From assembly GCF_013315695.1 (NCBI RefSeq), contig NZ_CP054353.1: a DNA stretch of 64,000 nt. The stretch is one strand, 5' to 3'. The notes below the pieces were generated by a model. It did no database searches. It saw only the letters and a program-made list of their open reading frames with translations, and had not been told where the DNA came from. This document shows positions 5,114 to 39,099 of this stretch, piece by piece (the stretch's first letter is position 1; each line of letters opens with the position of its first letter). Position numbers and translations under genes: made by a program. This DNA comes from Escherichia coli. GTDB lineage: Bacteria > Pseudomonadota > Gammaproteobacteria > Enterobacterales > Enterobacteriaceae.

Positions 5114-5617
5114 TTATTGATAGTGTTTTATGTTCAGATAATGCCCGATGACTTTGTCATGCAGCTCCACCGATTTTGAGAACGACAGCGACTTCCGTCC
5201 CAGCCGTGCCAGGTGCTGCCTCAGATTCAGGTTATGCCGCTCAATTCGCTGCGTATATCGCTTGCTGATTACGTGCAGCTTTCCCTTCAGGCGGGATTCA
5301 TACAGCGGCCAGCCATCCGTCATCCATATCACCACGTCAAAGGGTGACAGCAGGCTCATAAGACGCCCCAGCGTCGCCATAGTGCGTTCACCGAATACGT
5401 GCGCAACAACCGTCTTCCGGAGCCTGTCATACGCGTAAAACAGCCAGCGCTGGCGCGATTTAGCCCCGACATAGCCCCACTGTTCGTCCATTTCCGCGCA
5501 GACGATGACGTCACTGCCCGGCTGTATGCGCGAGGTTACCGACTGCGGCCTGAGTTTTTTAAGTGACGTAAAATCGTGTTGAGGCCAACGCCCATAATGC
5601 GGGCTGTTGCCCGGCAT
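5114..5617 (-). CDS. insB: IS1 InsB (expressed as InsAB' transposase by -1 frameshift)
   Basis: 167-aa [28 protein letters not shown]... overlapping the insA 3' end in the -1 frame. Confidence 0.9.
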
Positions 5618-36371: not shown

Positions 36372-37385
36372 ATGACGCAGGAAAACGAGATCAAACGTCC
36401 CACCCAGGATCTGGAGCACGAGCCGATTAAGCAGTTGGATAATAGCGAGAAAGGCGGCAAAGTTAGCCAGGCGCTGGAAACCGTCACCACTACTGCCGAG
36501 AAAGTCCAACGCCAACCGGTTATTGCGCACCTGATTCGCGCGACAGAACGCTTTAACGATCGGCTGGGTAACCAGTTTGGTGCGGCTATCACCTATTTCT
36601 CATTTTTGTCGATGATCCCGATTTTGATGGTGTCGTTTGCCGCAGGGGGCTTTGTGCTGGCCTCCCATCCGATGTTGCTACAGGATATCTTCGACAAAAT
36701 TCTGCAAAACATCAGCGATCCGACGCTAGCCGCCACGTTGAAAAACACCATCAACACCGCCGTTCAGCAGCGTACGACTGTAGGGCTTGTCGGCCTGGCG
36801 GTGGCACTTTATTCCGGCATCAACTGGATGGGTAACCTGCGTGAAGCGATTCGTGCCCAGTCGCGCGATGTCTGGGAACGCTCGCCGCAAGATCAGGAGA
36901 AGTTCTGGGTAAAATATCTGCGTGATTTTATTTCGCTGATTGGTTTGTTGATTGCGCTGATTGTGACGCTTTCTATCACCTCGGTTGCCGGTTCTGCGCA
37001 GCAAATGATTATTAGCGCCCTGCACCTGAACAGCATTGAGTGGCTGAAACCGACGTGGCGGTTGATTGGCCTGGCGATTTCCATCTTCGCCAACTATCTG
37101 CTTTTCTTCTGGATCTTCTGGCGGTTACCGCGCCACCGTCCGCGCAAAAAAGCCCTGATTCGCGGAACATTTCTGGCTGCTATTGGTTTTGAAGTGATTA
37201 AAATTGTGATGACTTACACCCTGCCATCGCTGATGAAATCCCCCTCTGGCGCAGCATTTGGTTCCGTGCTGGGGCTGATGGCATTTTTCTACTTCTTCGC
37301 CCGTTTGACGCTGTTTTGCGCGGCGTGGATTGCCACCGCCGAATATAAAGACGACCCGCGAATGCCGGGGAAAACGCAGCGGTAA
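36372..37385 (+). CDS. yhjD: Inner membrane protein YhjD (YihY/virulence factor BrkB family)
   Basis: 337-aa multi-TM ORF. Confidence 0.8.
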   Translation: MTQENEIKRPTQDLEHEPIKQLDNSEKGGKVSQALETVTTTAEKVQRQPVIAHLIRATERFNDRLGNQFGAAITYFSFLSMIPILMVSFAAGGFVLASHPMLLQDIFDKILQNISDPTLAATLKNTINTAVQQRTTVGLVGLAVALYSGINWMGNLREAIRAQSRDVWERSPQDQEKFWVKYLRDFISLIGLLIALIVTLSITSVAGSAQQMIISALHLNSIEWLKPTWRLIGLAISIFANYLLFFWIFWRLPRHRPRKKALIRGTFLAAIGFEVIKIVMTYTLPSLMKSPSGAAFGSVLGLMAFFYFFARLTLFCAAWIATAEYKDDPRMPGKTQR

Positions 37386-37776
37386 TTCATTGGTTTATAA
37401 TGCCTGATAAACGCACGGTCGATCCCCTCGCCCCTTCGGGGAGAGGATTAGGGTGAGGGGGTACAAGCCAGCCAGAGACCAGGCAATGACATGCACATAA
37501 CCACCTGAAACTACATCTCTTCAGGAGCAAACAATTTCATTCCAACTCATAACCCCAGCATATAAATCCAGTTGGTAACTTTTATTTAACCTGAAACCAG
37601 TTTTATCCACTATTTATAAAATTATGTGAAGCATTTCATAGAAGAAAAATCACTGGCCTAAACATTATCCCCTTTTTGCCTGGTTTTTGACCATTTCCGC
37701 GATTTGTTACACATTGAAATATCACTTTTGCTGTGCGTAATATGGCTATTCGTTAGCCAAAAAATAAGAAAAGATT

Positions 37777-39099
37777 ATGCAAGCAACAGCCACAACACTC
37801 GACCACGAGCAAGAATACACGCCGATCAACTCGCGTAATAAAGTCCTTGTCGCCTCTCTCATTGGCACGGCCATTGAGTTCTTCGACTTTTATATTTACG
37901 CCACTGCGGCCGTTATTGTGTTTCCGCATATCTTCTTCCCGCAGGGTGATCCTACGGCAGCAACGCTACAGTCGCTTGCCACCTTCGCCATCGCCTTCGT
38001 CGCGCGCCCCATTGGCTCTGCCGTTTTTGGTCATTTTGGCGATCGCGTTGGGCGTAAAGCGACGCTGGTCGCCTCGTTGCTAACGATGGGGATTTCGACC
38101 GTGGTGATTGGTCTGCTGCCGGGCTATGCCACGATTGGTATTTTCGCCCCGCTGCTGCTGGCGCTGGCTCGATTTGGTCAGGGTCTGGGTTTAGGCGGCG
38201 AATGGGGCGGAGCGGCTCTGCTGGCGACTGAAAACGCCCCACCGCGCAAACGTGCACTGTATGGCTCCTTCCCGCAGCTGGGCGCACCGATTGGCTTCTT
38301 CTTTGCCAACGGCACTTTCTTACTGCTTTCCTGGCTACTGACCGACGAGCAGTTTATGAGCTGGGGCTGGCGCGTGCCGTTTATCTTCTCGGCGGTGCTG
38401 GTCATTATCGGCCTGTATGTTCGCGTGTCGCTGCATGAGTCGCCGGTGTTTGAGAAAGTCGCTAAAGCGAAAAAACAGGTGAAGATCCCGCTGGGTACGC
38501 TGCTGACCAAACATGTTCGCGTAACCGTACTGGGTACGTTCATTATGCTGGCAACCTATACGCTGTTTTACATCATGACGGTCTACTCTATGACCTTTAG
38601 TACCGCCGCCGCGCCAGTTGGGCTTGGCCTGCCGCGTAACGAAGTATTGTGGATGCTGATGATGGCAGTGATTGGTTTTGGCGTGATGGTGCCAGTCGCC
38701 GGATTACTGGCTGATGCCTTTGGTCGCCGTAAAAGCATGGTAATCATCACCACGCTGATCATCCTGTTCGCGCTGTTCGCCTTTAACCCTCTGCTCGGTT
38801 CTGGCAACCCGATTCTGGTTTTTGCCTTCCTGCTGCTGGGGTTAAGTCTGATGGGACTGACCTTCGGGCCGATGGGCGCGCTGTTACCAGAGCTGTTCCC
38901 GACAGAAGTGCGTTACACCGGAGCATCGTTCTCTTACAACGTAGCGTCGATTCTCGGGGCTTCCGTTGCGCCGTATATCGCAGCCTGGTTGCAGACTAAC
39001 TACGGGTTAGGTGCGGTGGGGTTATATCTGGCGGCGATGGCTGGCTTGACGTTAATCGCCCTGCTGCTGACCCATGAGACACGACATCAGTCGTTGTAA
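37777..39099 (+). CDS. yhjE: MFS transporter YhjE (metabolite:H+ symporter family)
   Basis: 440-aa 12-TM ORF with MFS signature (GHFGDRVGRKATL). Confidence 0.85.
   Translation: MQATATTLDHEQEYTPINSRNKVLVASLIGTAIEFFDFYIYATAAVIVFPHIFFPQGDPTAATLQSLATFAIAFVARPIGSAVFGHFGDRVGRKATLVASLLTMGISTVVIGLLPGYATIGIFAPLLLALARFGQGLGLGGEWGGAALLATENAPPRKRALYGSFPQLGAPIGFFFANGTFLLLSWLLTDEQFMSWGWRVPFIFSAVLVIIGLYVRVSLHESPVFEKVAKAKKQVKIPLGTLLTKHVRVTVLGTFIMLATYTLFYIMTVYSMTFSTAAAPVGLGLPRNEVLWMLMMAVIGFGVMVPVAGLLADAFGRRKSMVIITTLIILFALFAFNPLLGSGNPILVFAFLLLGLSLMGLTFGPMGALLPELFPTEVRYTGASFSYNVASILGASVAPYIAAWLQTNYGLGAVGLYLAAMAGLTLIALLLTHETRHQSL

Follow-up and report, generated by a model that had tools for sequence, protein, structure and literature searches.

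The 391-nt spacer between yhjD and yhjE in Escherichia coli (37386-37776 of the window, the 64,000-nt stretch of DNA analysed here) contains a GC-rich imperfect palindrome, and the question raised by this locus is whether the palindrome is the terminator of yhjD or a member of a dispersed repeat family and, if the latter, which family it belongs to. The palindrome was found at 37421-37464 exactly as quoted in the original prediction (gatcccctcgccccttcggggagaggattagggtgagggggtac, 44 nt) and begins 36 nt downstream of the yhjD stop codon. Its hairpin, cctcgcccc-ttc-ggggagagg, is paired at eight of nine positions, with a single G/A mismatch, and a tail, GGGTGAGGGGG, comes after ATTA on the 3' side of the hairpin. 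The element is very probably a copy of BoxC, also called the PIT element or TMECO, of subtype A: a known kind of repeat that has slightly decayed. The features of the locus are as follows.

36372-37385, + strand: yhjD coding sequence, a 337-aa ORF with its TAA stop codon at 37383-37385 (name from RefSeq, identical sequence in other strains)
37381-37492, no strand assigned: segment in which the two E. coli spacer alleles differ (alignment with K-12, O157 and UPEC 26-1)
37402-37472, + strand: full reach of similarity to BoxC copies elsewhere (113-nt query, 37383-37495)
37413-37472, + strand: BoxC unit of ~60 nt, consisting of left flank GCACGGTCGATC, triplex-motif core and right flank GGTACAAGCCAGC (15 type-A copies compared, core-anchored)
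37424-37434, + strand: block 1, the C-rich strand CCCCTCGCCCC (read from the sequence)
37435-37437, + strand: loop 1, TTC (read from the sequence)
37438-37447, + strand: block 2, GGGGAGAGGA, which forms Watson-Crick pairs with block 1 (triplet table and K-12 copies in Table 1 of PMC4666352)
37448-37450, + strand: loop 2, TTA, diagnostic of TMECO type A
37451-37461, + strand: block 3, GGGTGAGGGGG, the third (reverse-Hoogsteen) strand in the proposed triplex (scheme from PMC4666352)
37777-39099, + strand: yhjE coding sequence, a 440-aa ORF whose start lies 316 nt 3' of the element (RefSeq name, identical DNA in other strains)

Family identity of the palindrome

The motif was named BoxC (Bergler et al. 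1992), later the PIT element (Hoyne et al. 2000) and later TMECO (Holder et al. 2015) (PMC4666352). It is an intergenic repeat of ~56 bp found in E. coli and other enterobacteria (PMC4666352, PMC5172473), and the K-12 GenBank record holds 33 BoxC elements of 56 bp, with a range of 51-59 (PMC5172473). The TMECO consensus is CCCTCNCCC-N3-6-GGGNGAGGG-N3-GGGNGAGGG, of which K-12 MG1655 possesses 23 strict copies, and the second loop is TTA in type A and CCG in type B (PMC4666352). The commonest K-12 form, 'A mm' (CCCTCGCCCCTTTGGGGAGAGGGTTAGGGTGAGGGG), has a G in block 1 opposite an A in block 2 and is represented by 13 K-12 copies (PMC4666352).

The core of the window copy (CCCTCGCCCCTTCGGGGAGAGGATTAGGGTGAGGGG, 37425-37460) is identical at 34 of 36 positions to the 'A mm' copies of K-12 (for example no. 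7 of PMC4666352, Table 1), and the two differences are a T to C change in loop 1 and a G to A change at 37447. The original prediction had left the family unassigned and called for comparison with known repeat consensus sequences, and this comparison now supplies the name: the BoxC consensus pattern fits at 37425-37459 with one substitution, in block 2 (GGGAGAGGa). The strict zero-substitution TMECO pattern is missed by this one base (A37447), and copies that miss the strict pattern have been called 'mutated TMECO' (PMC4666352). The A at 37447 is specific to the window copy, as the family base is G. Assignment to subtype A follows from TTA at 37448-37450, and the G37430/A37442 mismatch recurs in all 13 'A mm' copies of K-12.

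The conserved unit extends beyond the core. Fourteen further type-A copies were compared, comprising four loci from other strains (trmJ-iscR, recA-recX, fepB-entC and flgG-flgH) and ten K-12 copies taken from the coordinates in PMC4666352. When anchored on the core, the family exhibits a conserved left flank of ~12-14 nt, G.GCACGGACGGTC, with an A-rich stretch on its left, and a conserved right flank of ~12 nt, GAACAG.CCAGC. The flanking motifs GCACGG.CG.TC and ..ACA.GCCAGC are common to the window copy and the 14 others, and within them the window left flank GCACGGTCGATC is two positions off the consensus GCACGGACGGTC and the window right flank GGTACAAGCCAGC fits GAACAGGCCAGC with one extra base. 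Similarity to the trmJ-iscR copy covers 37402-37460 (91.5%), and the recA-recX and fepB-entC copies match from 37409/37413 to 37472 at 83-88%, both ending at 37472. The repeated unit is accordingly ~60-70 nt, larger than the 44 nt first delimited, and at ~60 nt the window unit compares with 56 bp (51-59) for BoxC. All 15 copies, that of the window included, are intergenic. The window copy thus shares with BoxC the three-block core, the TTA loop, the flanks, the ~60-nt unit, the intergenic position and the dispersed, multi-copy distribution, but differs from BoxC in K-12 in its location, as yhjD-yhjE is not a BoxC site there.

The proposal that the palindrome belongs to a dispersed intergenic family, for which a genome-wide search for further copies had been suggested and uniqueness named as the contrary outcome, is borne out by its recurrence. 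Of 5,426 complete E. coli genomes, 5,425 contain matches to a 49-nt query (37418-37466), 87,079 similar places in all, with a median of 17 and a maximum of 32 copies per genome; 87,030 of these places are chromosomal and 49 lie on plasmids. The element is single within the 64-kb window. No match with three or fewer mismatches was obtained from 100 shuffles. Recurrence across genomes is the decisive sign that the element is more than a product of chance, whereas its folding energy as DNA is by itself unremarkable (-9.2 kcal/mol, z = -1.4 relative to shuffles). A search of 37000-38000 against Rfam at a permissive threshold returned only matches at the level of chance, the best over the element being Antizyme_FSE at 18.6 bits (gathering score, 40), and in the accessible part of the supplement to PMC4666352 the yhjD-yhjE copy was not found by sequence, by gene name or by IAI39, SMS-3-5 or CE10 coordinates. 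On the minus strand, a 47-aa ORF (37387-37530) runs across the element; it was treated as a chance reading frame.

Two other families of dispersed intergenic imperfect palindromes in enterobacteria, ERIC/IRU (127 bp) and RSA (~150 bp), are set apart from BoxC by their unit lengths (PMC5172473). Similarity of the window element to other copies extends over no more than 71 nt (37402-37472), and its unit is ~60 nt. As a sequence feature the BoxC element is an ordinary member of a family that is already known; its name resolves the palindrome and cautions against annotation as a yhjD terminator.

History of the yhjD-yhjE spacer

The BoxC allele of the yhjD-yhjE spacer is present in 599-600 of 5,426 genomes, including IAI39, SMS-3-5 and CE10, which we take to be phylogroup F strains. 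In the other genomes 77% of the 581-nt query aligns and the middle part is left unaligned; alignment with K-12, O157 and UPEC 26-1 places a two-REP BIME of similar length in the position of 37381-37492 of the window. The first REP of UPEC 26-1 is internally deleted. The variable region starts within the last codon of yhjD, where the last sense codon (37380-37382) is CGG in the window and E. albertii, CCT in K-12, CAT in E. whittamii and AAT in a divergent Escherichia genome (L012). Downstream of the variable region lies an indel of ~20 nt at 37507-37528, which reads GAAACT-ACATCTCTTCAGGAGC in the window and GAAACTCGTCCCCAGAGCCTCTTCAGCCATCTATTTGGGAGC in K-12, O157 and E. albertii, and the short form of this indel is also present in L012.

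Outgroup spacers were obtained from the yhjD neighbourhoods of 80 species-representative genomes, which yielded 72 spacers with both anchors. The BoxC half-motif was present in none of these 72 enterobacterial yhjD-yhjE spacers. Around 50 species possess a spacer of 125-138 nt with a plain hairpin, GGGCTGAA-loop-TTCAGCCC, located ~10-70 nt after the yhjD stop codon; Salmonella and several Citrobacter possess REPs after yhjD; and BIMEs are present in all five Escherichia-labelled representatives (two E. coli, one Escherichia sp., E. whittamii and E. albertii). The absence of BoxC from the outgroups, together with the BIME in most E. coli and in all five Escherichia-labelled representatives, indicates that BoxC is derived at this site and confined to a minority E. 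coli lineage, and the occurrence of REPs in Escherichia, Salmonella and some Citrobacter suggests that the ancestral plain hairpin was replaced by repeat elements more than once. As read from these alignments, BoxC is likely to have replaced the BIME at yhjD-yhjE in the minority lineage, in agreement with the published link between the motif and unstable spacers (PMC4666352); in that study, rearrangement between E. coli strains was far more extensive in TMECO-bearing spacers than in controls.

On either side of the BoxC core, the sequences at 37402-37414 and 37467-37484 are similar to the halves of a REP of the GCCTGAT type (GCCTGATAAACGC ... GCCAGC-CAGAGACCAGGC), with compensatory differences relative to the resident GCCGGAT...ATCCGGC REP of other Escherichia. 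They could represent a REP that has been split or merely a longer BoxC subfamily unit, and the second reading is suggested by the presence of GCACGG and GCCAGC in the BoxC flank consensus and by the left extension that the trmJ-iscR copy shares. Alignment of the window allele, minus BoxC, with the resident REP gave a score of 21.5 against 9.1 +/- 3.4 for shuffles, most of which comes from the shared right flank. A search for target-site duplications at the filled recA-recX and yhjD-yhjE sites found only short, ambiguous repeats (CTAACGAA; ATGC).

The BoxC/BIME dimorphism of the yhjD-yhjE spacer is a small but clean addition that is absent from the literature examined. Two alleles exist within E. 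coli and the outgroup species indicate which of them is older, making the spacer a natural test case for the turnover of small repeats and for any influence of these repeats on the expression of neighbouring genes.

BoxC spacers at other loci

Five BoxC loci were compared between strains, and replacement of BIME by BoxC, or the reverse, was seen at two of them, yhjD-yhjE and trmJ-iscR. The trmJ-iscR spacer contains a multi-REP BIME cluster in K-12 and a type-A BoxC with a decayed inverted partner in strain 2014C-3051, and the two are exchanged between identical flanks (AAGGCC ... GACAACAGG; L004:294-593 versus L009:1133-1583). The recA-recX spacer is 68 nt in K-12 (L008:841-908) and 242 nt in strain 210205630 (L005:269-510), where the additional DNA consists of a BoxC and a degenerate, inverted second element; the K-12 site is simply empty. 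At adk-hemH, K-12 possesses a BoxC followed by a hairpin, GGCCGGATATTCATTCGGCC-TTTT (L092:278-512), whereas O157:H7 and ~2,500 other genomes possess an unrelated segment of ~55 nt (L101:219-349). The zntA-tusA BoxC is retained in all strains compared, with point mutations in a B2-like isolate (L102) and in SCU-484, and in SCU-484 a three-REP BIME is inserted ~25 nt upstream of it (L103:232-400).

A general rule by which BIME and BoxC replace one another was rejected, given the unrelated segment at adk-hemH and the empty K-12 site at recA-recX. The trmJ-iscR, recA-recX and adk-hemH spacers are unstable where BoxC is concerned, in agreement with PMC4666352. This association between BoxC and spacer instability is correlative, and the spacers might simply be permissive sites.

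REPs are mobilised by the RAYT transposase; we know of no mobilising enzyme for BoxC. One explanation of the swaps is that BoxC preferentially enters or replaces REP/BIME spacers, through recombination between REP-like flanks or through the REP-mobilising machinery, so that the two families compete for sites. This seems distinctly improbable, but if correct, the exchanges at yhjD-yhjE and trmJ-iscR would be footprints of that competition.

BoxC-like sequences also occur near yhjD in other genera. In 463 kb of yhj neighbourhoods 37 BoxC-like matches were found, never at yhjD-yhjE and often as inverted A/B pairs; they lie at two other spacers (locus positions ~290-640 and 5125-5505) and come from Pseudocitrobacter, Enterobacter, Pluralibacter, Phytobacter, Huaxiibacter and one E. 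coli-labelled genome.

Folding of the element and its possible functions

As RNA the element is clearly more stable than its shuffles (-26.5 kcal/mol, z = -3.4). In the minimum-energy fold of the window copy, the C-block is paired with the last G-block and not with the middle one, so that block 3 is an alternative Watson-Crick partner of block 1 under ordinary folding; this choice reflects the design of the element, in which one C-block is accompanied by two G-blocks that can each pair with it. The single-stranded G-rich form of the motif has been shown in vitro to fold back twice into a purine-motif intrastrand triplex, the in vitro evidence concerning consensus copies, whereas DMS footprinting gave no sign of the triplex in vivo (PMC4666352). 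When the window copy is laid out in this scheme, eight of ten predicted triplets are canonical. One of the two broken triplets is the family-typical mismatch between G37430 and A37442, and the other is terminal and due to A37447, which also disrupts the second G-run. Any triplex formed by the window copy would therefore be one triplet shorter.

The position of the element invites the reading that it is the Rho-independent terminator of yhjD, as it resembles such terminators in being a GC-rich stem-loop soon after a stop codon (36-40 nt past that of yhjD) with high stability as RNA, and as ~50 other species have a plain hairpin at this position behind yhjD. The original prediction already preferred a repeat to a simple terminator, and the evidence agrees with it. 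A T-run, and hence a U-tract, is absent after both alternative stems, which are followed by ATTAGGG and TACAAGCC, and a promoter and terminator scan gave no terminator-like site in 37386-37776 and no signal of either kind at the element. The motif also recurs, at ~17 copies in each genome and oriented either way with respect to genes, and earlier work on PIT elements found that they arrest DNA polymerase in vitro, with neither promoter nor terminator activity and without effect in vivo (Hoyne & Maher 2002, via PMC4666352). Termination of yhjD by this element is accordingly very unlikely. As there is no terminator between yhjD and the element, the element is probably transcribed within the yhjD 3' UTR, and this opens a second reading, in which it stabilises yhjD mRNA as a substitute for REP/BIME and has been retained for that purpose. 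REPs block 3'-5' exonucleases, the element stands where other strains have the BIME and other genera the plain hairpin, and it forms a strong RNA stem-loop. Retention for this role is nevertheless doubtful. TMECO copies favour neither one orientation nor neighbouring genes of any particular function, and in K-12 they are found upstream of ORFs more often than downstream (PMC4666352). The decaying substitution at 37447 and the point mutations of the B2-like zntA-tusA copy suggest, in addition, that constraint is weak.

A degenerate REP or BIME is a further candidate, as this is the family resident at the site in K-12, where two REPs occupy exactly the same position, and the sequences that flank the core, GCCTGATAAACGC and GCCAGC..CCAGGC, resemble REP halves. 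BoxC and REP/BIME are both short, GC-rich, palindromic intergenic repeats at the 3' ends of genes, and they often share spacers (frlR-yhfS, fimH-gntP, pstB-pstA and zntA-tusA), but they differ in consensus, and the third G-rich block of BoxC is absent from REPs. The REP stem of the GCC(G/T)GATG...CATC(C/A)GGC type was not found in the core, the flanks contain only weak half-sites, and the K-12 BIME allele does not align with the core, which is dissimilar to the REP consensus and matches BoxC copies at 83-92% over ~60 nt. The GCACGG and GCCAGC flanks, moreover, belong to the BoxC consensus. For the core this reading is refuted, and as an account of the element it is hardly credible. That the relevant structure is a G-quadruplex, instead of a triplex or hairpin, is suggested by the family consensus GGGGAGAGGGTTAGGGTGAGGGG, which contains four runs of at least three G separated by 3-nt loops (PMC4666352). 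The window copy departs from the canonical motif (four runs of at least three G, 1-7 nt apart), as its runs are GGGG, GG, GGG and GGGGG; the second has become GGA (37445-37447), leaving three runs of G3. The adjoining C-block would compete through Watson-Crick pairing, and NMR imino-proton counts favoured the triplex (PMC4666352). A quadruplex is therefore extremely improbable here.

The identification as a BoxC copy of subtype A is thus retained, and a history can be proposed for it. A segment containing BoxC would have taken over from the resident BIME in the ancestor of what is now a minority lineage of E. coli. The copy is likely to have no dedicated role for yhjD or yhjE and most likely represents a selfish or neutral repeat, surviving in gene-end spacers tolerant of inserts, its chief effect probably being to make the spacer prone to replacement. 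By analogy with the REPs that it would have replaced, its RNA stem-loop of ~-26 kcal/mol may also serve as a barrier to 3' exonucleases.

The strand context bears on where a triplex, if any, might form. GC skew of the + strand is negative in all 8-kb blocks of the window (1-64000; -0.01 to -0.05), in keeping with a + strand that serves as leading-strand template, the role predicted by the position of yhjD on the K-12 map (left replichore). The G-rich strand would accordingly be the template for the leading strand and, in yhjD transcription, the non-template strand, and we infer that a transcription bubble would be a likelier setting for any triplex than lagging-strand replication.
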